Shown: piece by piece, positions 1,551 to 42,512 of the stretch
Position numbering within the stretch: the first letter of the stretch is position 1
Layout of the letters: each line of letters starts with the position of its first letter
NCBI GenBank assembly: GCA_034722955.1
Contig: JAYEOM010000063.1
Span: forward strand, 1 to 42,512
From: Campylobacterota bacterium
GTDB taxonomy: Bacteria; Campylobacterota; Campylobacteria; Campylobacterales; Sulfurovaceae
Direction: 5' to 3'
Length of the DNA: 42,512 bases
The notes under the pieces: generated by a model
The model's input: the letters and a program-made list of their open reading frames with translations, nothing else
The model's database searches: none
What the model was told of the DNA's origin: nothing
Translations under genes and position numbers: made by a program

Positions 1551-2921
1551 TCATATAAGTATCATCTGTGCCAAACCCAAAAAGGCGAAAAAGCCCAATA
1601 CATCTGTCACAGTAGTTAGCAGTACTGAACTAGCTACAGCAGGGTCAGTTCCGATTTTTTTGAGTCCTAGGGGGATCACCGTACCGAAGAAACCTGCTGC
1701 AAGCAGATTGATGATCATCGCCATAGCGATCACGATACCCAGTCTAGCATCAGAGAACCAGAAAAATGCGATAGCACCCATCAGCAGTGCAAAGAGCAAT
1801 CCATTCAGGAGTGCGATGATGATCTCCTGCCTGATAGAGTCTTTCGCCTCTGACCAGCTCATCTCACCCAAAGCTATCTGTCTCACCATAATAGTCAGAG
1901 ACTGTGTACCGGCATTTCCTCCCATAGATGCAACGATCGGCATTAGGATCGCTAGTGCAACATACTTTTGGATCGTCTCATCAAAAAACGCTATCACCAG
2001 TGAAGCCAAAATAGCAGTAACTAGATTGACCCCTAGCCAAACACCGCGTTTTCTGGTGATAGATGCAATATCTCTATCCTCCTCTGTCTCATCATCAACC
2101 CCTGCCATCTTATAGATCTGATCTGTAGCCCGCTCTTCGATAATATCATAGACATCATCTGAGGTGATACGACCGATCAATACTCCTCTACTGCCTACAA
2201 CAGGAAGAACTACAAGATCATAGTTTTCAAAGATATTGACAACTACATTGATATCATCACTCGCTTTGACTCTCTGAATCATCTTGTGTGTTTTATCAAA
2301 ATAGTCTCTAAATGTTTTATCAAAATCATAAGTAATAAGATCTTCGAGCAAGATCACACCGATCAATATATTAAATTTATCAACGATAAAGGCTTGATGG
2401 ATATTATCAAGATCCTCCTCTCTCTTCATCTTTTTCAACCGCTCTACGGCTTCGCCTATCATCTCATCGAGATGTGCAGAAAAAAGCTCTGTCTGCATCA
2501 ATGCACCAGCTTCATCCTCTTCATACTTCTTGAGAAGTTTGATATCCTCGATATCCTCTTTATCGAGATTGGATAGTACCTCTTGCTCTTTATCACTATC
2601 TATATCTTCGATATCCTGCATCAAGTCAACAGCATCATCTGAGTCAAGCTCATCAACGATCTCGACCAGTTCTCTAACGGAGAGCTCTTTGAGTGCTTTA
2701 TCTTTGATCTTCTCTGGAAGCTCTAGAAGTACTTCACCTAGATGCTCCTCTGGAATCACACGAATATATACGAGAAATGCATCAAATCCCTCTTGATTAT
2801 AGACCTCTTTTAGTATTTTGGCTATCTCATTAGAGTGATACTCTTCAAAGTTTTCAGGATTCTTTATCAGGGTCTCTAGCAGCACCTTCGACTCTTCGAG
2901 ATGTATGGTATCTTCTATCAT
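1551..2921 (-). CDS. mgtE: Magnesium transporter MgtE
   Basis: Acidic N-domain, CBS pair, TM region with MGGNAGTQ and DPA...TTVTDV. Confidence 0.95.
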   Translation of the reverse strand: MIEDTIHLEESKVLLETLIKNPENFEEYHSNEIAKILKEVYNQEGFDAFLVYIRVIPEEHLGEVLLELPEKIKDKALKELSVRELVEIVDELDSDDAVDLMQDIEDIDSDKEQEVLSNLDKEDIEDIKLLKKYEEDEAGALMQTELFSAHLDEMIGEAVERLKKMKREEDLDNIHQAFIVDKFNILIGVILLEDLITYDFDKTFRDYFDKTHKMIQRVKASDDINVVVNIFENYDLVVLPVVGSRGVLIGRITSDDVYDIIEERATDQIYKMAGVDDETEEDRDIASITRKRGVWLGVNLVTAILASLVIAFFDETIQKYVALAILMPIVASMGGNAGTQSLTIMVRQIALGEMSWSEAKDSIRQEIIIALLNGLLFALLMGAIAFFWFSDARLGIVIAMAMIINLLAAGFFGTVIPLGLKKIGTDPAVASSVLLTTVTDVLGFFAFLGLAQMILI

Positions 2922-4174
2922 TGATCAACTCCTATCATTACAGACTCCTTTTCATCGACTAAACTATAGTTGATTTTATAATCATCCCATCTGAAATTTT
3001 CAGGAGGGTTCTCTAGCATTTTCAACACTTTAACTCTATTTTGTTTGGCCCCTTTGATCTCTATCTTTTTAGTGATAAAGGATTTGAGTCCTCCGCTGCT
3101 CTTTTTTTTGAGGTACTTTAGAGGATTTACAGCTCGACCATTTTTGTATAATCCAAAGTGCAGGTGCGGACCGGTACTACGCCCTGTGTTGCCTACATAC
3201 CCTATGATCTCTCCTTTTTTGACCTTTTTCCCTCTCTTGGCACGAGTACTTTTTTGGTGGGCATAGAGAGAGACATATCCACCGGAGTGTTTGATCTTGA
3301 CAACCTTTCCATATCCACCCTTCCATCCGGAGAATATGACTCTACCTGGGGCAACAGCCAGTAGCGGAGTTCCTCTTCTCGCTGCAAAATCTACTCCTAA
3401 ATGCGGTCTATATCGACGCAGGATCGGATGCCATCTCTTGTAGCTAAAATGCGATGAGATACGAATATGTCTCAACGGCATTCCAAATTTATCATTTCGT
3501 TTCAATCTTTTGATTTTAGCTGTTGAGACAGGATTGCCTCTGCTGTCATAGGTTACAGTTTTACTAGTACTCTGATAGGGCATACCATCTTTATCTGCAT
3601 AGATAAAACTCCTCTTGCCTCCTGTCTCGATCATAGCTATTTTGAGATCAGGAGAACCAAGTGGTCTGCCTAAACGCTCTTTTTGGGTATAGATCATCGC
3701 TATAGTATCATCTTTTTTCAGTTTTCGACAGTTGACACTATTTTTGAAAAACTTGTTCACCAAACTTGCAAGTTTGCGGTTACCAGTTGTATTTTTGATA
3801 TCACTGTATGGATTCATTGTGATGGGTGTCACTACTCTATACTCATCATCAGAAAAGATGATCGGTATAATATCAAAAGCATAATCTCCACTCTCTTGAT
3901 CTCTAACAACCTGTATCTGCATCTCTTCACCGATGGGGATGAGTGACTGCAATAACCTACCATCTTGGTCAAAAAGTTCATAAAATGCTACACCACTCTC
4001 TATCTCAGATAGAAATTCCATATCATCAGACTCAATAGTCTCAATCAAAGAGAGGGATATATTGCGATCTTCGAGATAAGTAGAAAATACCTCTCCCTCC
4101 AACCAATGAGTCTCGACGACTTTTGCTGAAAAAAGTGATGAGAGCAGAAGCCAAAACAGAAGTAAAGTTTTCAT
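2918..4174 (-). CDS. M23 family peptidoglycan DD-metallopeptidase (Csd3-like)
   Basis: Signal peptide; RWHPIL..HLGVDFAA, GGYGK, YAH, STGPHLHFG. Confidence 0.9.
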   Translation of the reverse strand: MKTLLLFWLLLSSLFSAKVVETHWLEGEVFSTYLEDRNISLSLIETIESDDMEFLSEIESGVAFYELFDQDGRLLQSLIPIGEEMQIQVVRDQESGDYAFDIIPIIFSDDEYRVVTPITMNPYSDIKNTTGNRKLASLVNKFFKNSVNCRKLKKDDTIAMIYTQKERLGRPLGSPDLKIAMIETGGKRSFIYADKDGMPYQSTSKTVTYDSRGNPVSTAKIKRLKRNDKFGMPLRHIRISSHFSYKRWHPILRRYRPHLGVDFAARRGTPLLAVAPGRVIFSGWKGGYGKVVKIKHSGGYVSLYAHQKSTRAKRGKKVKKGEIIGYVGNTGRSTGPHLHFGLYKNGRAVNPLKYLKKKSSGGLKSFITKKIEIKGAKQNRVKVLKMLENPPENFRWDDYKINYSLVDEKESVMIGVDQ

Positions 4175-4210
4175 AAAATTCCCATTAACAAGTTAGTATT
4201 ATCAGTATAA

Positions 4211-4368
4211 GGAGCCTCCCAAAAACAAATATACCCATCTTTCTTCTCCTTTTGTCCCTATTTGAATTCTCTCAATCGTCGCATAGAGTCACTATGCTCC
4301 TCACGAGAGTATCCAACTAGAAACAAAATTCCTGCGTCATATTGGTATATTTGTTCTTGTGCAGCTCC
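4211..4368. mobile_element. 158-bp MITE-like element (family A, longest copy)
   Basis: 25-bp TIRs ggagcctcccaaaaacaaatatacc / ggtatatttgttcttgtgcagctcc (21/25), TAA on both sides (4208-4210, 4369-4371), central hairpin gcatag-agtca-ctatgc. Confidence 0.85.
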
Positions 4369-4380
4369 TAAAACAAAAAG

Positions 4381-4444
4381 ATTATAACAAAAAATGGTTA
4401 ATCTCTGTAGAAACACTATATTTTTAATCTTTGTCAAGTATAAT
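4381..4444. promoter_or_regulatory. Divergent promoters: TGTTATAAT (minus, 4381-4389) and TATAAT (plus, 4439-4444)
   Basis: Consensus -10 boxes facing the M23 operon and the pgbA-like operon. Confidence 0.55.
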
Positions 4445-4477
4445 CGTATCAATACATGTTCAACACAAAGGATTCTT

Positions 4478-5164
4478 ATGCGTGCTATCGCAATTACTTT
4501 TCTCCTCTCTATAGTCCCCTTGATGGCGGATTTTTATCCATCTACAGTACAGAGTACGATATCTGGTATCGGGCAAAATAGTATCACACTAAAACGCGGT
4601 TTCCCTGCCAAAGGGATGAGTGCGATCATTATGCATAAATATGGAGATGATCTTAAAGCAGTCACAAGCTATATGCGTTATGATGGTGGCAACAGAGGCA
4701 GACTCATAGAGAATGAACCTATACTACATGATGAGCTGCCTGCAGTCAAACCCAAGGTAGGTGTCGGAGACAGAGTAATCGCCGGATACCTATATAAAAA
4801 TATCCTTCTGCTTGCACCTGATGCCAATACATATGCAAGGATCACAAGTTCTGCGAAAAAAAACTGGATACACCCTGATCTCTATGCGATGTTCCTCTCT
4901 CAGGAGGGAGATCAATATCCCACACAAGAGAATTTGCAAAAATTTGCCAATGAGTATCAGATAGGTCTAGTCTATATAGTTCAACGAGGCAAGGCTCTCC
5001 TCTATGACCCTATAAGCAGACGGTATGTCTCCAAAAAAACATTGACAGGATTGCCGGCAAAAGGGCAATTCCCTTTCTATATGAGACTAGGCAAGATCGA
5101 ATCAGGCTGGTTTTCGAGAGAAGCAGATGGTGAGTATTATCAACTCATGAAGAGTATTCGGTGA
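4478..5164 (+). CDS. Plasminogen-binding protein PgbA N-terminal-domain family exported protein
   Basis: ATG 4478 with AAGGA SD and signal peptide (MRAIAITFLL..); LLAPD...Y, IHPDLYA, P..ENLQ motifs; upstream of glcD as in related genomes. The ORF-track start at 4394 is probably too long. Confidence 0.75.
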   Translation: MRAIAITFLLSIVPLMADFYPSTVQSTISGIGQNSITLKRGFPAKGMSAIIMHKYGDDLKAVTSYMRYDGGNRGRLIENEPILHDELPAVKPKVGVGDRVIAGYLYKNILLLAPDANTYARITSSAKKNWIHPDLYAMFLSQEGDQYPTQENLQKFANEYQIGLVYIVQRGKALLYDPISRRYVSKKTLTGLPAKGQFPFYMRLGKIESGWFSREADGEYYQLMKSIR

Positions 5165-6549
5165 TAGATGAAAAACATCTTCAAGCCTTTGAGGAGATAG
5201 TAGGGGCAGAAAACCTCTATAGTGACAAGGCTCACCTCATCGCCTACAGCTATGATGCTACACGAACACACTTTGAGCCTGATGCTGTCATCTTTCCTCG
5301 TCATGAAGAGGATGTGAGCAAAATATTGCAATACTGCAACCAAAACCATATCATCATTACACCACGCGGTGCAGGATCAGGTTTTACCGGTGGTGCACTA
5401 CCGGCAAATGGTGGTATCATTTTGGCGATGGAGAAGCATATGAACAAGATTTTGGAGATTGATTTCCAAAATATGGTCGCTGTGGTAGAGCCTGGTGTTA
5501 TAAATATGGATCTGCAAAAGGCTGTCGAAGAGGTGGGTCTCTTCTATCCGCCTGACCCGGCAAGCGAAGAGTATTGTACTCTTGGTGGCAATGTCAGTGA
5601 AAATGCCGGAGGGATGCGTGCTGCAAAGTATGGCATCACCAAAGACTATGTTATGGCTATGCGTGCTGTACGAGCCAACGGAGATATCATCCGAGCAGGA
5701 AAACGAACGATCAAAGATGTAGCAGGATATAACATCTCCGGTATTCTGACTGCTAGCGAGGGAACTCTAGCTGTGATTACCGAGATCACTCTCAAGCTTA
5801 TCCCCAAGCCAAAGTTCACAAAAGCCTATATGGGGATATTCCCCTCTGTTGAGAATGCTATGAATGCTGTATTTAAGTCTCTAGCAGCAGGTGCAAATCC
5901 TGTAGCTATGGAGTTTTTAGACTCTCTAGTAGTACAAGCTCTCAAAGAGAAACTTGGTATAGAGCTTCCTGAAGATGCTGGGGCACTGCTGATCGGTGAT
6001 GTCGATGGCAATGTTGCTCAAGAGGTTGATTTTCAACTAGATATTTTGCAAACATCATTCAGAGAAAATGGTGCACAGGATTTTGTCATCGCAGAGGATA
6101 GCAAAGCACGAGACAAACTCTGGTATGCTAGACGAAACGCCTCTCCATCCATCACTATCTTTGGCAGTAAAAAACTCAATGAAGATATCTCTGTACCTAG
6201 AAGCATGCTGCCAGAGGCACTAAATCGTATCTATGCTATAGGAGATAAGTATGGGTTTAAAGTCCCCTGTTTTGGGCATGCTGGTGATGGCAATATCCAT
6301 GTAAATATCATGGTAGATGGAGCAAATCCCAAAGAGCTAGAGGATGGACATAGAGCAATAGAGGAGATATTTAGACTTGTGGTAGATATGGGCGGTACCC
6401 TCAGTGGCGAGCATGGTATAGGGACAAGCAAAGCACCCTTTATGCATATCGCTTTCAGCGAAGAGGAGATTCAACTCTTCAGAGATATCAAACAAGCCTT
6501 CGACCCAAACAATATACTCAACCCCGGCAAGATGGGTCTTCCAAACTAA
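5161..6549 (+). CDS. glcD: FAD-linked oxidase, glycolate/D-lactate dehydrogenase GlcD family
   Basis: PRGAGSG, PPDPAS, ENAGG..KYG, GHAGDGNIH, SGEHGIG, FDP..ILNPGK. Confidence 0.9.
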   Translation: MIDEKHLQAFEEIVGAENLYSDKAHLIAYSYDATRTHFEPDAVIFPRHEEDVSKILQYCNQNHIIITPRGAGSGFTGGALPANGGIILAMEKHMNKILEIDFQNMVAVVEPGVINMDLQKAVEEVGLFYPPDPASEEYCTLGGNVSENAGGMRAAKYGITKDYVMAMRAVRANGDIIRAGKRTIKDVAGYNISGILTASEGTLAVITEITLKLIPKPKFTKAYMGIFPSVENAMNAVFKSLAAGANPVAMEFLDSLVVQALKEKLGIELPEDAGALLIGDVDGNVAQEVDFQLDILQTSFRENGAQDFVIAEDSKARDKLWYARRNASPSITIFGSKKLNEDISVPRSMLPEALNRIYAIGDKYGFKVPCFGHAGDGNIHVNIMVDGANPKELEDGHRAIEEIFRLVVDMGGTLSGEHGIGTSKAPFMHIAFSEEEIQLFRDIKQAFDPNNILNPGKMGLPN

Positions 6550-6552
6550 TAT

Positions 6553-7374
6553 ATGAAAAAACCCAATATCAATCCACCTATGATAAAAACTTTTTTCAAT
6601 GATCTGCTAGATGAACGGATAGGGTATTACGCCTCCAGCATGAGCTGGAGTACCATATTTTCGATTATTCCTCTACTGGTTATTTTACTCTCTGTATTTA
6701 CCTCGTTGCCTATATTTCAAACTGTATATGACGATATTCATACTCTTATCTTTGAAAATCTCATGCCTGCAAACTCCGAAGAGATCATGAAGTATATCGA
6801 TGGTTTTATAGCAAACTCTGGAAAATTAGGTATAGTTGGCTTCTTATATGTTTTGATCGCTGCTGTTATGTTTTTCAAAAACTACGATTTTATCGTCAAT
6901 GACATCTTTGAGACTCCTAGAAGAACAGTAGTTGAAGCACTCACAAACTACACTCTGCTGATCGTCATTGTTCCAGTTATGTTGGGAGCCTCCTTTTTCC
7001 TATCTACTAACATGCAGTACTATTTGGACAAGAGTGATATTACCAGTGTTATTCATCTCTACTTTTTCCTGCCATACTTGATGATATGGGGGACATTTTA
7101 TATCGCTTATCAACTCTCAGCCCATACCGTGATCTCCAAAAGAGCTGCTCTAAGTAGCTCTTTTATCGCTGCACTTATCTGGGATCTTGCCAAGAGCGGT
7201 TTTATCTTTTATGTCACAAGCAACCATACTTACAGTAGTATATACGGTAGCATCAGCACACTTCTATTCTTTTTTCTCTGGATATATATCTCATGGATGA
7301 TTTTTTTGTATGGTTTGCGATTTTGTTATCTATTGGACAAAAAGGTAACAAAGGTAGAGCGTAGCGGTACTTAG
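6553..7374 (+). CDS. YihY/BrkB family inner membrane protein
   Basis: Multi-TM; S..TIFSIIPLL and YSSIYGS....LFFFLWIYISW. Confidence 0.85.
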   Translation: MKKPNINPPMIKTFFNDLLDERIGYYASSMSWSTIFSIIPLLVILLSVFTSLPIFQTVYDDIHTLIFENLMPANSEEIMKYIDGFIANSGKLGIVGFLYVLIAAVMFFKNYDFIVNDIFETPRRTVVEALTNYTLLIVIVPVMLGASFFLSTNMQYYLDKSDITSVIHLYFFLPYLMIWGTFYIAYQLSAHTVISKRAALSSSFIAALIWDLAKSGFIFYVTSNHTYSSIYGSISTLLFFFLWIYISWMIFLYGLRFCYLLDKKVTKVERSGT

Positions 7375-13028: not shown

Positions 13029-13078
13029 GGAACCTCCCAAAAACAAATATACCAATCTCGCTTGTCCTTGTGCAGTCC
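13029..13078. mobile_element. 50-bp internally deleted MITE (family A)
   Basis: ggaacctcccaaaaacaaatatacc...ttgtccttgtgcagtcc flanked by TTA (13026-13028, 13079-13081). Confidence 0.8.
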
Positions 13079-13091
13079 TTATCGCTTAATA

Positions 13092-13514
13092 CTAAAAATC
13101 ACCAGTCAATCGGTTACCGGTAAGAGTAAAGACCGCACTCCCGCCACTGGGTTTTCTAAAAGTATAGACAGGTGCAGCATCCGAGCCAGTTACTGCCCAA
13201 CAACTTGTTGCACCACTACCACTGCATATTTTTACCGGATACTCAAGCAACTCACCAAAAACTTGACTATTGGTGGTATCGTAACCTATATCTGTTCTCG
13301 TTATATTGTCAAAATTACCACGCAATATCCGCTTCTGCCGCTCTGTAGCAAGTGAACTACGCACAGATGCCAAGGTAGTCCTAGCTTTTGTCATAATAGC
13401 ATCATCTCGTGTCACGGCAAACTTTGGTATAGCGATAGCAGAGAGTATCCCGATCACTACTATCACAAAAACTAACTCTAGCATGGTAAATGCACTTCTT
13501 CTATTTTTATCCAT
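13092..13514 (-). CDS. Prepilin-type N-terminal cleavage/methylation protein (pseudopilin)
   Basis: RRSAFTMLELVFVIVVIGILSAIAIPK; ATG 13514 with AAGGA SD; own TGATATAAT at 13541-13549. Confidence 0.85.
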   Translation of the reverse strand: MDKNRRSAFTMLELVFVIVVIGILSAIAIPKFAVTRDDAIMTKARTTLASVRSSLATERQKRILRGNFDNITRTDIGYDTTNSQVFGELLEYPVKICSGSGATSCWAVTGSDAAPVYTFRKPSGGSAVFTLTGNRLTGDF

Positions 13515-13577
13515 CACTAATCCTTTTCTCAAACTACTTAATTATATCAAAAAACAGACCCAAAAGATACTCCTGGA

Positions 13578-13961
13578 TCAATACTCTACCAAATTGCCGC
13601 CAATAGTTACAAAGTTATCACCGGTCAAACCCTTTTTTTCCGCTTCTCTCTGTGCATTTTCACAATATTCTCTACCATCATGATCTCCTCCGTTAAGGAT
13701 AGAGATAGTAATCGTATCGTTTTCATTTGAAACACTAGAGACAAAACAGTTAAGTTTGGTACCGCTGTGATTTTCATCTGCCACACCTGTAGCAGTATAA
13801 TAGGTCGTTATGTCACCTATATAGATAGCTAAATTAGATAACTCCAAACTAGTTTTAGCATCATCTCTAGTGGATGCCAATTTGGGGATAGCCACTGAAG
13901 CCAATATACCTATAATCACTATCACAAAAATTAACTCTATCATTGTAAAAGCACTTTTCAT
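13578..13961 (-). CDS. Prepilin-type N-terminal cleavage/methylation protein (pseudopilin)
   Basis: MKSAFTMIELIFVIVIIGILASVAIPKL..TRDDA; AAGGAG SD. Confidence 0.9.
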   Translation of the reverse strand: MKSAFTMIELIFVIVIIGILASVAIPKLASTRDDAKTSLELSNLAIYIGDITTYYTATGVADENHSGTKLNCFVSSVSNENDTITISILNGGDHDGREYCENAQREAEKKGLTGDNFVTIGGNLVEY

Positions 13962-14048
13962 CTCTATCTCCTTTTGCGTCAGATAATAGATACTAGCTTA
14001 CATTTTAACATAATTTTTATAGATAAAAGATAAATAGTGTTTCTTTTA

Positions 14049-14117
14049 GGAACTTCACAAGAACAACTAGGAGCAAAAGGGCGAGTCAGGTGGGTAGAAT
14101 TGTTTTTGGGAGGTTCC
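14049..14117. mobile_element. 69-bp MITE (family A), inverted relative to the first two copies
   Basis: ggaacttcacaagaacaa...ttgtttttgggaggttcc flanked by TTA (14046-14048, 14118-14120). Confidence 0.85.
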
Positions 14118-38677: not shown

Positions 38678-39553
38678 CTATTGGTCACAGTAGCGTCTCA
38701 TCAAATCGCCATAACTCTCAATCCTGCGATCTCTGAGAAAAGGCCAAATATCGCGTACCTCTTTGGTGCGGTTATGGTCAATATCAGCATATAGGATGAT
38801 CTCATTTTTTGGATCTGCTTGAGCTAGTATCTCCCCTTGGACTCCACAGACAAAGCTGTGACCCCAAAAGTGAATCCCCTCCATCACACCGGAACTATCA
38901 GCTTCAAATCCTACACGATTGCATGATAGTAGAGGTATGGCGTTGGCGATAGCATGGGAGCGTTGGATGGTGACCCAGCTCTGAAGCTGTCTCTTTTTTT
39001 CCTCTTGGCTGTCGGAGTCGAACCAGCCTATGGCTGTGGGATAGATGAGCAGTTCGGCCCCTTTGAGTGTCATGATGCGTGCTGCTTCAGGATACCACTG
39101 ATCCCAACAGATGAGTACGCCTAGTCTGCCTACACTGGTCTGGATGGGTTCAAAACCCAGATCGCCGGGGGTAAAGTAGAATTTTTCATAAAATCCAGGG
39201 TCATCGGGGATATGCATCTTGCGATATTTCCCAGCCACACTCCCATCTCTTTCAAAGACTACTGCTGTATTGTGATAGAGTCCAGAGGTGCGTTTCTCGA
39301 AAAGTGAAGTGACAAGAACGATACTGTTAACTCTAGCAACTTCACCCCAATAGAGTATATCTGCTTCATACTCACTAGCATATTCAAAAAACTTAACATC
39401 TTCACTCTGGCAGAAGTACTCATTTTGATGGAGTTCCTGCAGGACGATCAGTTCTGCTCCGTTCATGGATGCCTCTTTGATCTTTTCAGAGGTTTTATCA
39501 ATAGTTTTTTGTCTCTCTCCGTAGTACTCTTGTTGAATCAGTGCAACTTTCAA
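38678..39553 (-). CDS. aguB: N-carbamoylputrescine amidase (nitrilase superfamily)
   Basis: LQEL, YRKMHIPDDPGFYEKFYF, ICWDQWYPE, PTAIG; next to agmatine deiminase. Confidence 0.9.
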   Translation of the reverse strand: MKVALIQQEYYGERQKTIDKTSEKIKEASMNGAELIVLQELHQNEYFCQSEDVKFFEYASEYEADILYWGEVARVNSIVLVTSLFEKRTSGLYHNTAVVFERDGSVAGKYRKMHIPDDPGFYEKFYFTPGDLGFEPIQTSVGRLGVLICWDQWYPEAARIMTLKGAELLIYPTAIGWFDSDSQEEKKRQLQSWVTIQRSHAIANAIPLLSCNRVGFEADSSGVMEGIHFWGHSFVCGVQGEILAQADPKNEIILYADIDHNRTKEVRDIWPFLRDRRIESYGDLMRRYCDQ

Positions 39554-39564
39554 ATCTCTCTCCT

Positions 39565-40563
39565 CTATTGGGCTATCTGCATCGTGGAGCAGTGGAGGCT
39601 TCCACCCTCTTCGATCAGTTTTTCACAGTTGATAGGGATGATCTCCTTGTCAGGGAAAATCTCCTTGAAGATACTATCTGCCTCTCTGTCTGTGGGGGCA
39701 TTGTAGGTTGGATAGATCAATGCTCTGTTGGTGATGAGGAAGTTGGCATAGGTGGCTGGGAGTCGGCTGCCCCCTTGGTCATACCGGGCTTCACACATAG
39801 GCAGGGGGATGAGTCTATAGGGTTCCTCCTCTATTGTACGGAAGTTTTTTAGCTCATCTTCCATCTTCTGCAACTCTATATAGTGCTCATCCCCTCTGTT
39901 GTCGCACTTGAGATAGGCGATTGACTCTTTGTCAACAAAACGGGCAAGTGTATCGATGTGGCTATCGGTATCATCTCCTGCTAGATAGCCACTGTTTAGC
40001 CATAGTATACGATCGGCACCTAGATATGCTGATAGCTTTGAAGCTACCTCATCTTGGCTCAGTCCACCGTTGCGGTTGCGGTTGCATAGACAGCGAGAAG
40101 TTGTCATGATCGTTCCTGCACCATCTGATTCGATGGAGCCTCCTTCGAGTACAAAATCTATACTCTCCAAGGGTGTGGTACCTAGATACCCTTTTTGGTA
40201 CAGTACTCTATTGAGTAGGTTGTCAAGAGAAGCATCAAACTTGCCTCCCCATCCATCAAAGCTAAAGTCGAGTAGTTTTGTCTCTCCGCTCTCTTCGATA
40301 GATATATATCCATAGTCTCGTATCCAAGTATCGTTGGTAGGGATCTCTATAAAGCTCATATTGCGGGTAGTGCAAAATCTATCAGATATACTTTTTTTGT
40401 CTCTACAGATGATATAGAGGGGTTGTGCATAGGCGATAGCTTGGGCTATACGGATAAAAGGAGTGAGTGCTGCTTCTAAGTTCTCTGCCCAGTCTGTATC
40501 TGCATGAGGAAAAGCCATCAATACTGCTCTTTGTCTCTCCCACTCTGCTATGGTTCTACGCAT
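39565..40563 (-). CDS. aguA: Agmatine deiminase family protein
   Basis: AEWE, DTWIRDYG, LEGGSIESDG, DDTDSHID, ATYANF, GGSLHCSTMQ. Confidence 0.9.
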   Translation of the reverse strand: MRRTIAEWERQRAVLMAFPHADTDWAENLEAALTPFIRIAQAIAYAQPLYIICRDKKSISDRFCTTRNMSFIEIPTNDTWIRDYGYISIEESGETKLLDFSFDGWGGKFDASLDNLLNRVLYQKGYLGTTPLESIDFVLEGGSIESDGAGTIMTTSRCLCNRNRNGGLSQDEVASKLSAYLGADRILWLNSGYLAGDDTDSHIDTLARFVDKESIAYLKCDNRGDEHYIELQKMEDELKNFRTIEEEPYRLIPLPMCEARYDQGGSRLPATYANFLITNRALIYPTYNAPTDREADSIFKEIFPDKEIIPINCEKLIEEGGSLHCSTMQIAQ

Positions 40564-40622: not shown

Positions 40623-41627
40623 ATGGCTTTTATCACAATAAATAGAGAAAACTTTTATCACAATCTTAACCAAATTGCTCTAAAAACAGGCTCAATAGAT
40701 AAGATATCTATCGTCCTAAAAGACAATGCTTACGGACATGATATCGAAATCATGGCAGGTTTGGCTAGTGATTTTGGTATCAAACATGCTGTAGTCGGAG
40801 ATCAAGGTGATGCATCGAAGATCATATCACTTTTTGAAACAGTATTGGTACTAGAGGGGAGAGTGGAGTCTTTGGCAAATGTCTCTTATGCTATCAATAC
40901 GACCGATGATATTGCGAATATCCCAAAAGGTACAAAGGTAGAGCTCAAAGTCGATACAGGAATGCATCGAAACGGCATAATGATAGAGGATCTTGAGTTG
41001 GCTCTATCTCTGATCAGAAAGCAGGGTTTGGAGCTAGTAGGTTTGATGACTCACTATCGCAGTGCTGATCTCTTGGGGTCAGAGTTTTTCTGGCAACAGA
41101 GAGAATTTGAAAAAGCCAAGGAGAGAGTCAAAAAAGCAGGATTTTCAAACTTGAGGATACACTCATACAACTCAGCTGCTATCTTGCGTTCGAAGAGATT
41201 TGATGAAGATATGGTTAGAGTGGGTATAGCAGCCTATGGATACAATGAACTCACCTGCCCATTTGATGATACCGTACTCAAACCAGTACTAAAACTCTAT
41301 GCTAGAAAAGTCTCAACTCGCATACTCAAGCAGGGTGAGAGGGTAGGGTATGGAGGTGCATTTACTGCTCCTGGGCAAATGTCTATCTCTACTTATGATC
41401 TAGGATATGGGGATGGTTGGTGCAGAGGTGATAGCAGCCACCCCTATATCACAGCTGAGGGACTCTCCATACTCGGACGAGTATCGATGGATTTTATAGC
41501 TCTTGAGACAGATAGAGATGAGGTCTGCATCATGTCTGATGCACAGATAGCAGCAAAACACTTCAATACTATCAGCTACGAAATGACCACAGCCCTCTCA
41601 CCAGCGATCGATAGAGTTGTTGTCTAA
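40623..41627 (+). CDS. alr: Alanine racemase
   Basis: VLKDNAYGH (PLP Lys), [32 protein letters not shown]. Confidence 0.93.
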
Positions 41628-41651: not shown

Positions 41652-41674
41652 GGAACTTCACAAGAACAATTCTA
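41652..41674. repeat. Solo family-A MITE terminal repeat
   Basis: TAA + ggaacttcacaagaacaa; these 18 bp are identical to 14049-14066. Confidence 0.75.
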
Positions 41675-41693
41675 TGCGTGGTTTTCTTGGCAT
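41658..41693 (-). pseudogene. 5' remnant of a RAYT/TIRYT-like Y1 transposase (MPRKPRIELFL*)
   Basis: AAGGAG SD (41700-41705) and TATACT -10 (41711-41716); MPRKPRIE is a typical N-terminus of this family as I recall it; the frame runs into the MITE TIR. Confidence 0.55.
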
Positions 41694-41759
41694 GTTGGAC
41701 TCCTTTAAGAAGTATAGCGTAAGAGTTATTAGGTTATCGTTATCACCTGACACCTATAC
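41688..41759 (-). repeat. Left arm of an imperfect inverted repeat bracketing the TA module
   Basis: Core 41742-41759 matches the reverse complement of 42436-42453 at 16/18; tacgcta, aaaggagt and atgcca are also shared. Confidence 0.8.
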
Positions 41760-41815
41760 TCCAAAACTTACTTTCACTACTACTTATAGAAAAAACAACT
41801 CTTCAAATTAAACAA

Positions 41816-41852
41816 AAAGTATACATCTGTTTGATAAAATGATGTATACTTT
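41816..41852 (+). promoter_or_regulatory. Palindromic operator enclosing an extended -10 for the TA operon
   Basis: Perfect 12-bp arms aaagtatacatc/gatgtatacttt around a 13-bp spacer containing TGATAAAAT. Confidence 0.65.
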
Positions 41853-41868
41853 AATTTAGGAGTTCATC

Positions 41869-42102
41869 ATGATAGCTTTAAAACAACAAGAACTTTTTGA
41901 CGAAATTGATATTTTACCCATCGATATAAAAACTAAAATCATTGATAAAATATTAAGTAGCATCAGCCCCATCGACAAGTCTATAGATGATTTATGGATA
42001 AAAGAAGCCAATAAAAGAAAAGATGAAATAGAATCTGGAAACGTAAAATTAGTTAATGGTGATGAAGTGTTTAAAAAAATATCTAAAAGACTAAACTCAT
42101 AG
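41869..42102 (+). CDS. Addiction-module antitoxin (TIGR02574/unstable antitoxin family)
   Basis: LP...K..I...L.S....ID..W..E..KR..EI.SG.V......EVF pattern; AGGAG SD; directly upstream of toxin. Confidence 0.85.
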   Translation: MIALKQQELFDEIDILPIDIKTKIIDKILSSISPIDKSIDDLWIKEANKRKDEIESGNVKLVNGDEVFKKISKRLNS

Positions 42103-42393
42103 ATGAAATACTCATTTCATCCAGAAGCTGAAATTGAATTCAATACCTCAATTGATTATTATGAAGAATGTAAGCAAAATCTAGGCTTAGACTTTGCAAA
42201 TGAAGTCTACAAAACAATCCAAAGAATCTTAAACTTTCCAACTGCTTGGCACATTTTAGATAAAGAGATTAGAAGATGTTTGACAAATAGATTTCCTTTT
42301 GGAGTAATCTATTATCAAAGAAATAATGAGATTATTATTCTAGCGATTATGCAACTCAATAGAAAACCAAACTACTGGAAAAGCAGAAAATAG
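42103..42393 (+). CDS. RelE/ParE family type II toxin
   Basis: FHPEAE.E.....YY......LG..F, RR....RFPFGVIY, ILAIM...RKPNYW. Confidence 0.88.
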   Translation: MKYSFHPEAEIEFNTSIDYYEECKQNLGLDFANEVYKTIQRILNFPTAWHILDKEIRRCLTNRFPFGVIYYQRNNEIIILAIMQLNRKPNYWKSRK

Positions 42394-42399
42394 TAAAAG

Positions 42400-42426
42400 A
42401 TATAACAAAACATAGGAGCCAATAAG
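42400..42426 (+). other. Possible left half of an integron attC site
   Basis: ATATAAC core 6 nt after the toxin stop, 5-bp spacer, ATAGGAGC; no complementary right half downstream in the window. Confidence 0.45.
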
Positions 42427-42512
42427 TCACCTGAGGTAGAGGGGTCAGGTGATGCCAATGCTACTATAATCTAAACTACGCTACAATCCTCACAAAGGAG
42501 TAGCCGATGCCA
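42427..42512 (+). mobile_element. End of a putative TIRYT/RAYT-like element: hairpin, GGGGTCAG, promoter, SD and ATG CCA start (42507), cut by the window edge
   Basis: tcacctga-N10-tcaggtga hairpin; TATAAT 42465-42470, TACAAT 42482-42487, AAGGAG 42495-42500; mirrors the left arm. Confidence 0.6.

Follow-up and report, generated by a model that had tools for sequence, protein, structure and literature searches.

An integron-type toxin-antitoxin cassette bordered by two TIRtron ends downstream of alr in a Campylobacterota genome

The cassette downstream of alr

The window, the whole 42,512-nucleotide stretch of DNA that was analysed, is all of contig C63 of the source genome, G000, an assembly of 140 contigs (C denotes contigs, G genomes, L loci, and X1, X2, X4 and X5 sequencing runs). 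It carries alr, encoding alanine racemase (40623..41627, plus strand; Pfam PF01168/PF00842). Genes for a carbon-nitrogen hydrolase and a peptidyl-arginine/agmatine deiminase (38678-40563) are divergent from alr, and a deiminase-like gene recurs as an alr neighbour in relatives. Beyond alr, on the same strand, lie a 77-aa antitoxin of the ‘putative addiction module component’ type (41869..42102; PF09720, E 2.7e-12) and a 96-aa toxin of the ParE/RelE superfamily (42103..42393), whose PF05016 match (E 1.7e-4) scores 22.5 bits, slightly below the cut-off of 23. The AT-rich toxin-antitoxin (TA) pair of the original prediction is thereby upheld, with a Pfam match for the antitoxin, a sub-cut-off match for the toxin, and a GC content of ~28%. 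Runs X1, X2 and X4 hold a second TA variant, with 17 differences and 2 gaps in 199 nt over 41934-42132, which belongs either to another strain or to a paralogue. Homologous toxin loci numbered 131 (51 + 80), of which 116 were counted and 15 left out for a short flank or a partial match; the closest point to Campylobacterota. The 55 close homologues referred to below are at least 68% identical to the toxin and are not independent, as they include near-identical contigs and some short upstream flanks.

The pair is preceded by a leader (41762..41868, plus strand) that contains the TA promoter and an operator palindrome (41816-41852; z -4.22), and the promoter part of this leader is conserved in homologous cassettes. 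The toxin gene is followed, 7 nt past its stop codon, by a repeat that BLAST links to contigs C114, C28, C40, C65 and C125. An integron attC site consists of R’’, a 5-nt spacer, L’’ with an unpaired base, an inner hairpin, L’ and R’, and complete copies of the repeat show this layout. In the arrays of C28 (50634-52586) and C114 (31522-32061) they stand between small ORFs, and on C40 (225-291) and C65 (778-843) they come after ParE toxins; these four places comprise attC clusters as well as single TA cassettes. The window retains the left half of such a site (42400..42433, plus strand): R’’ ATATAAC, a 5-nt spacer, L’’ ATAGGAGC, and the inner arm up to the apex. A generic attC scan gave one convincing site among the three listed, and a family model was used instead; built with nhmmer from 8 sites, the window’s own excluded, it matched 42401-42432 (E 3.7e-4, model positions 2-34). 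Across 13 sites of the family, 88% of cells were paired and 12 pairs had changed on both sides, as against 0/500 shuffles and 27-44% in slid controls, although these controls flatter the structure because it was derived from the same 13 rows. Folding was in keeping with an attC site as well.

The attC family stands directly after the toxin stop in 9 of the 55 close homologues and within the locus in 14. At L058, a near-identical intact attC site lies behind a homologous toxin in an array with an integron integrase gene, intI; the array has three attC matches, including that of the TA pair, and the intI, which is divergent from it, encodes an N-terminus 64% identical to a TIGR02249 protein. Integrase genes above the TIGR02249 cut-off occur in 3 of 14 genomes of the genus. 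The 140 contigs of G000 hold none, only two other tyrosine recombinases under the cut-off; since its attC clusters thus lack intI in the assembly, we describe the G000 cassettes as CALIN-like. At L096, an attC R’ box, GTTATAG, lies ~110 nt upstream of the antitoxin start, and TTATAG at 41784-41789 in the window’s leader may be the remnant of an upstream R’ box.

The antitoxin-ParE pair is therefore a gene cassette of the integron type that has a promoter and an attC site of its own, which the original prediction had missed. In the accessible text of two accounts (PMC8618304; PMC8876359), both CALINs and TA cassettes that bring their own promoters are standard, and TA systems are among the commonest cassette functions reported. 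With the CALIN TA cassettes described there, the window shares two genes, an own promoter, an attC site just past the toxin stop, and relatives in clusters without intI. Unlike a typical CALIN cassette, it stands alone behind alr, its upstream attC is unrecognisable, and its own attC is cut at the apex: the sequence of the element to the right begins at 42433/42434, and the far half (L’/R’) is absent. By the biology of attC sites, excision of the cassette by IntI should no longer be possible.

Two variant ends of the TIRtron family

As originally predicted, both flanks of the TA pair carry the same ordered module in inverted orientation, with 18-nt arms at 41742-41759 and 42436-42453 that match at 16/18 positions (89% complementary). 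The left end (41694..41761, minus strand), which we call variant B, reads from a 7-nt foot (41761-41755) through a terminal inverted repeat (TIR) of ~22 nt starting at 41754 (GGTGTCAGGTGATAAC...), a -10-like box tacgctatact (41721-41711) and a ribosome-binding site aaaggagt (41706-41699) to an ATG at 41693. The right end (42434..42506, plus strand), variant A, has the 7-nt foot AGGTAGA, a TIR from 42441 (GGGGTCAGGTGATGCC...), tacgctacaat (42477-42487), aaaggagt (42494-42501) and ATG CCA (42507-42512), so that its gene reads Met-Pro where the window ends, as had been noted. The proposed fit to the TIR consensus GGGGWSAS was exact for the right end (GGGGTCAG, plus strand); the left end (GGTGTCAG, minus strand) has one mismatch. 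A sigma-70 scan listed neither -10 module and was uninformative (3 sites, versus 4.4 in shuffles); the modules are putative transposase promoters on the strength of their conservation across copies.

The two ends are only 54/82 (66%) identical, and each has its own variant family. Variant B is 91% identical over 78 nt to a copy on C75 of G000, where the matching 3’ TIR is present; the ends most like it in other genomes are 81-82% identical, and intact elements among these (L178, L224) encode 255-aa HUH/Y1 proteins. Its boundary was placed at ~41761/41762 because other alleles match the window only from 41762 on. These are two TA-bearing contigs without the left end, from two studies (X4 record 19 and X5 record 28), which align from 41762 and have ~450 further unaligned letters, the side being inferred for X5; run X5 covered only 0.22 of the sequence words, and only its one contig was used. 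Variant A has copies 87-97% identical on C22, C25, C111, C104 and C113, and the sister genes on C22 and C25 begin MPRKPRIEIAGYYHII....

The repeat is abundant. A 12-mer core occurs in 27 exact copies, against ~0.2 expected by calculation from 40% GC, and the genome scan called for by the original prediction yielded 105 ends by a stricter pattern. More than half of these (53/105) lie within 300 bp of a contig end, where 3.3% would be expected, and summed contig depth in X1/X2 was 2897-6747 at 42456-42512, versus 17-33 on alr. Contig C63 thus stops at Met-Pro because the motif is a genome-wide repeat that often lies at contig ends. MPRxPR-type starts number 14 in the genome, among them those of a 258-aa protein (C67) and of open fragments (C104, C25 and C22), and 7 places match PF01797 (Y1_Tnp). 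When 12 proteins from G000 and relatives were aligned, all matched Y1_Tnp, H59-x-H61 and Y118 were invariant, and the C-terminal region matched HTH_23 in 7 and HTH_28 in 4 (E<=0.01, mostly weak). The NF047646 score of 65.5 was below the cut-off of 80, and a sequence comparison of the Y1 core with solved structures gave no fitting match, the sole match being a designed repeat protein.

Of 301 genomes of the order, 81 contain relatives of the family. Complete elements (n=20 rows) measure 840-872 bp and have matched TIRs of ~20 nt. These 20 elements, all elsewhere than in the window, carry the inverted second TIR downstream of the gene that the original prediction had proposed to look for; derivatives with internal deletions and miniatures of 50-170 bp also exist. 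No target-site duplications were seen when the rows of complete elements were inspected by eye. Sister copies with the same 5’ ends run into Y1_Tnp ORFs with HUH motif, catalytic tyrosine and C-terminal HTH, which confirms the predicted TIRYT-type Y1 family. By these sister copies, the flanks of the TA pair are the 5’ ends of TIRtrons (~0.85 kb) predicted to encode a RAYT Y1/HUH transposase of subclass 2.1, an assignment that rests on the TIR and HTH features.

We equate the names TIRYT/TIRtron (Di Nocera et al. 2013, PMC3733652), TnpA-Y1 subclass 2.1 (Quentin et al. 2018, PMC6006769) and RAYT group 1 (Bertels et al. 2017, PMC5581495), as far as the accessible text of each allows. The first of these sources gives the GGGGWSAS consensus in the parts available, and the last, in its available text, credits group 1 with the top duplication rate in the RAYT family, 6.2%. 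The C-terminal HTH kinds of the subclass are Bac_DnaA_C, HTH_23 and HTH_28. The window’s family shares with TIRYTs, as described in those parts, near-gene GGGGWSAS TIRs, HUH plus catalytic tyrosine, a C-terminal HTH, and families of solo and dimeric TIR repeats. It differs in that the window shows only two 5’ ends, one of them a stub, and in its high copy number (105 ends).

The left element was predicted to be cut after MPRKPRIE, and this is the case: its ORF, MPRKPRIELFL* on the minus strand, comprises a transposase stub (41671..41693) whose LFL* is supplied by the terminal end of an unrelated MITE family (41652..41674). The ORF stops there because it is joined to the MITE end through a 4-nt microhomology (41671-41674); other variant B copies, on X1 and X5 contigs, part from the window at 41671 and continue as transposase. 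The MITE family, 51-158 bp with GGAAC ends and TAA/TA flanks, has 40 ends in G000; the core of the end at 41652..41674 has 13 matches, and that end is unpaired. The family also occurs in the window at 4211-4368, 13029-13961 and 14049-14117; the stretch 13029-14117 has one of its ends at either border and, between them, two short ORFs with a 116-nt repeat. Elsewhere in G000 (C112 186-1064), a reverse-transcriptase fragment (PF00078) lies between a TIRtron 3’ end and two MITEs.

We compared the 3’ side of alr among relatives, where the original prediction had called for a search for an empty site. No empty site was found: the neighbours differ, and ssrA has moved. The tmRNA gene ssrA lies directly after alr in 6 of 11 other genomes of the genus with a tmRNA locus, whereas in G000 it is separated from alr and lies with its promoter on C58 (42644-43017; tag ANNTDYRPAYAVA), behind a response regulator-kinase-like pair. 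In G006 (L016), an integrase-like ORF lies just beyond the tmRNA gene, by sequence look only. The 3’ border of alr is thus a rearrangement breakpoint, at which linkage has been broken rather than interrupted, and this suits the fusion of MITE and transposase. A deletion or rearrangement at the left junction appears to have also separated alr from ssrA.

Accounts of the arrangement

We consider it probable that two TIRtrons, through independent insertions, have enclosed and disabled an integron TA cassette at the alr breakpoint, where three kinds of known mobile DNA would have piled up. Two different TIRtron variants each present one left end at the cassette’s borders, the right one at the attC apex, and the left copy has been cut down to 8 codons and joined to an unrelated MITE end. 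The TA pair probably persists through addiction, which would protect it against deletion while its neighbours decay.

The original prediction instead took the two ends as a composite element that had moved the TA pair to its site after alr. The evidence does not bear this out. The ends belong to different variants, their repeats read away from the TA pair, which places it outside both units, and the body and outer end of the left element are gone, fused to another MITE family. Moreover, both window ends are 5’ ends, whereas complete elements have matched 5’ and 3’ TIRs. Among the 55 close toxin homologues, a TIR lies within 300 bp downstream in one, within 600 bp upstream in two and on both sides in none, and none has a transposase. 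The TA pair owns a separate mobility system, an attC site. The cargo between ends, which the original prediction proposed to list, proved unrelated from case to case in the 12 outward-pointing pairs within 6 kb in G000; across G000 and 20 related regions, 15 such pairs came in all end combinations, with many ends unclassed (automatic 5’/3’ classing left 42 of 106 G000 ends unclassed, including the window’s right end, which is short). Outward-facing inner ends are what any pair of neighbouring elements shows. An excised circle enclosing the attC site between both ends was rejected as well: the right TIR lies beyond the half attC site, and each of the two variants is represented by a 5’ end.

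A related account, in which two inverted full TIRtrons carried the TA cassette to alr by their outer ends and the left one decayed later, strikes us as improbable. It would fit the symmetric layout with its short 687-bp spacing, the variable neighbours 3’ of alr among relatives, and the pairs of copies in G121, G074 and G507 that bracket small genes or an integron fragment at a spacing of 2-4.5 kb. Against it, the window’s ends are of two variants, the outer left end is absent, the layout recurs in none of the 55 homologues, and alr borders a breakpoint rather than an empty site; the pairs in relatives are direct, and the G121 element truncates intI, as an insertion would. Composite transposons of the Tn5/Tn10 type carry cargo between two inverted copies of the same IS, which encodes a DDE enzyme. 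The window resembles them in having cargo between two inverted element ends. It differs in that its flanking elements are not copies of one IS, the outer end of one of them is missing, the enzyme is of the HUH type, and the target shows no visible duplication.

TIRtrons do occur in and around cassettes. In relatives, elements are found inside arrays of cassettes and next to TA or nucleotidyltransferase pairs, and among 22 further TA loci in G000, 6 have a TIR end within 1 kb, versus 4.5% at random. When matched for distance to the contig end, the mean was 2.4 (P 0.023), two of the six sharing one end; a looser end pattern gave 9/22, versus 8.6%. Individual loci vary in layout. At L206:5400-9230 (G121:C1), two direct TIRtrons lie around intI, which one of them cuts at 292 aa, and a GNAT cassette with attC. 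At L207:5561-11305 (G074:C1), an array of small ORFs without Pfam matches, behind a gene of 1464 aa, is interspersed with TIRtron sequences, all in a single orientation (two full copies, a mini element and solo left ends); its G035 homologue (L217) has ends too. A nucleotidyltransferase/substrate-binding pair lies between repeated left ends, with two transposase genes, at L208:2235-5871 (G507:C75). At L225:3545-5337 (G013:C79), head-to-head left ends surround a NucS-like cassette with intact attC, and the right one truncates the next cassette gene, a STAND NTPase fragment. Finally, at L262:880-1850 (G017:C23), an antitoxin/RelE-like pair lies between two direct TIRtron left ends, the first with a 54-aa stub and the second with a full 256-aa gene, each with a ladder of stutter copies (described below); this is the best candidate seen for cargo within a TIRtron. 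The enrichment of TA loci near ends, the head-to-head pair at L225 and the TA arrangement at L262 were counted against our main explanation, as were the absence of intI from the G000 assembly and an attC/TIR junction that none of the listed sequencing contigs spans.

We therefore considered whether TIRYT elements are steered to attC hairpins folded in single-stranded DNA, or to polymerase stalled there, and so break up cassette arrays; we regard this as about as improbable as the decayed composite. In its favour, the junction lies at an attC apex both in the window and in the single-contig genome G125, where a mini-TIRtron left end is joined to an attC loop with the far half missing (L210:7750-8091, G125:C1); TIRtrons lie within or beside arrays in G121, G125 and G013; and the window’s attC arm and TIR core form an 8-bp hairpin. 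The wider survey tells against it: a strict junction pattern was found in 1 of 250 genomes, the window’s own; a loose one at 20 places in 18 of the 250, versus 22 control matches, with 2 attC halves by eye; and the intact attC sites of G000 are uninterrupted. The reverse complement of the TIR core occurs in the flank of only 3 of 226 ends, and guidance by complementarity between flank and TIR core was rejected on that count. With apex junctions in only 2 of 250 genomes and the pattern at control level, attC targeting as a rule was likewise rejected for now. IS1111-attC elements and group IIC-attC introns, which are DEDD or retro-elements, target attC sites regularly. The present cases resemble them as a mobile element inside an attC site, and differ in amounting to 2 in 250 genomes, both with the far attC half lost. 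We conclude that the association of TIRtrons, cassettes and TA genes is best explained by shared accumulation in dispensable DNA; targeting or capture is a minority reading.

The weakest alternative, an assembly artefact in which unrelated sequences were joined through a collapsed repeat on one flank or on both, would draw on a contig end in a high-copy repeat and on an attC/TIR junction at 42433 that is unbridged among the sequencing contigs listed, and is very improbable given that alr, the MITE end, the left end and the leader lie together on an identical 1143-bp contig (X1, X2) and a 604-bp contig (X4), from runs that possibly include the source sample, and that G125 has the equivalent attC/TIR junction.

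End stutter and a candidate transposition mechanism

We examined 226 distinct ends in G000 and at the related loci L177-L244. A one-sided perfect tandem copy, or stutter, was present at 51, compared with 23 of 3000 sites chosen at random and 11 of 4520 flanks after shuffling. The stutter has its start outside the TIR, at a distance of 3-15 nt (6-7 nt in 34 of the 51), and ends 0-16 nt inside it. Neither of the window’s own two ends has a perfect stutter. A foot of 5-7 nt outside the TIR is common to copies of the element, and the allele boundary at 41762 lies 7 nt from the left TIR. The fixed start and variable end of the stutter copies, on one side only, point to nick-and-rejoin chemistry, and the ladders likely mark the nick site; repeated re-insertion of the element into its own end is the alternative.

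These features suggest a nicking mechanism for the TIRtron enzymes. The Y1/HUH enzyme would bind the TIR, probably through its C-terminal HTH, nick 6-7 nt outside the TIR on the strand reading into the element, remain attached to the 5’ end and re-ligate it to a free 3’-OH. Insertion in this way would leave the target unduplicated and would often delete adjacent DNA, and aborted primer extension followed by re-ligation could yield the stutter copies on one side. Whatever DNA lies between two outward-pointing ends would then be target, left behind, and not cargo. A nick-extend-rejoin model was put forward for TnpA-REP of E. coli in the accessible text of Ton-Hoang et al. (PMC3333891). By analogy with that model for REPtrons and BIMEs, as far as its available text goes, a Y1 nick, 3’-OH extension and phosphotyrosine re-ligation may lead to tandem additions here too. 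Unlike in TnpA-REP, the GTAG hairpin REP and fixed CT cleavage dinucleotide were not seen in TIRtrons, the start of the stutter is set by distance from the TIR, and the whole gene-bearing unit is multicopy. The one-sided stutter and the boundary 6-7 nt outside were not found in the available text of the TIRYT accounts of Di Nocera et al. 2013 and Quentin et al. 2018, and a search of the literature joining RAYT or HUH enzymes with attC or integrons, mostly outside subscription papers, found nothing on attC insertion or end stutter.

A bolder reading holds that the subclass 2.1 Y1 elements of Campylobacterota actively transpose: they would nick 6-7 nt outside the inverted repeats and ligate to free 3’ ends at folded sites such as attC apices, shuttling cassettes, TA cassettes above all, from one element end to another. 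We think this unlikely, if somewhat less so than the rivals above. If true, it would describe a second, HUH-driven system for moving cassettes, by which they leave the integron cycle; its products would include the window and the direct arrays in G017, G074, G507 and G121. Were TIRYTs to move cassettes or to target attC sites, for which the case is thin, an HUH enzyme would offer a new way of capturing genes.

The locus itself is ordinary in kind, a known element family adjoining a known cassette type. The TIRYT or subclass 2.1 family is large, and no biochemistry was found in the accessible portions of its three accounts (PMC3733652, PMC6006769, PMC5581495). The Campylobacterota family offers many intact, recently duplicated copies, and the scars at their ends predict a nick 6-7 nt outside the TIR, which can be tested.
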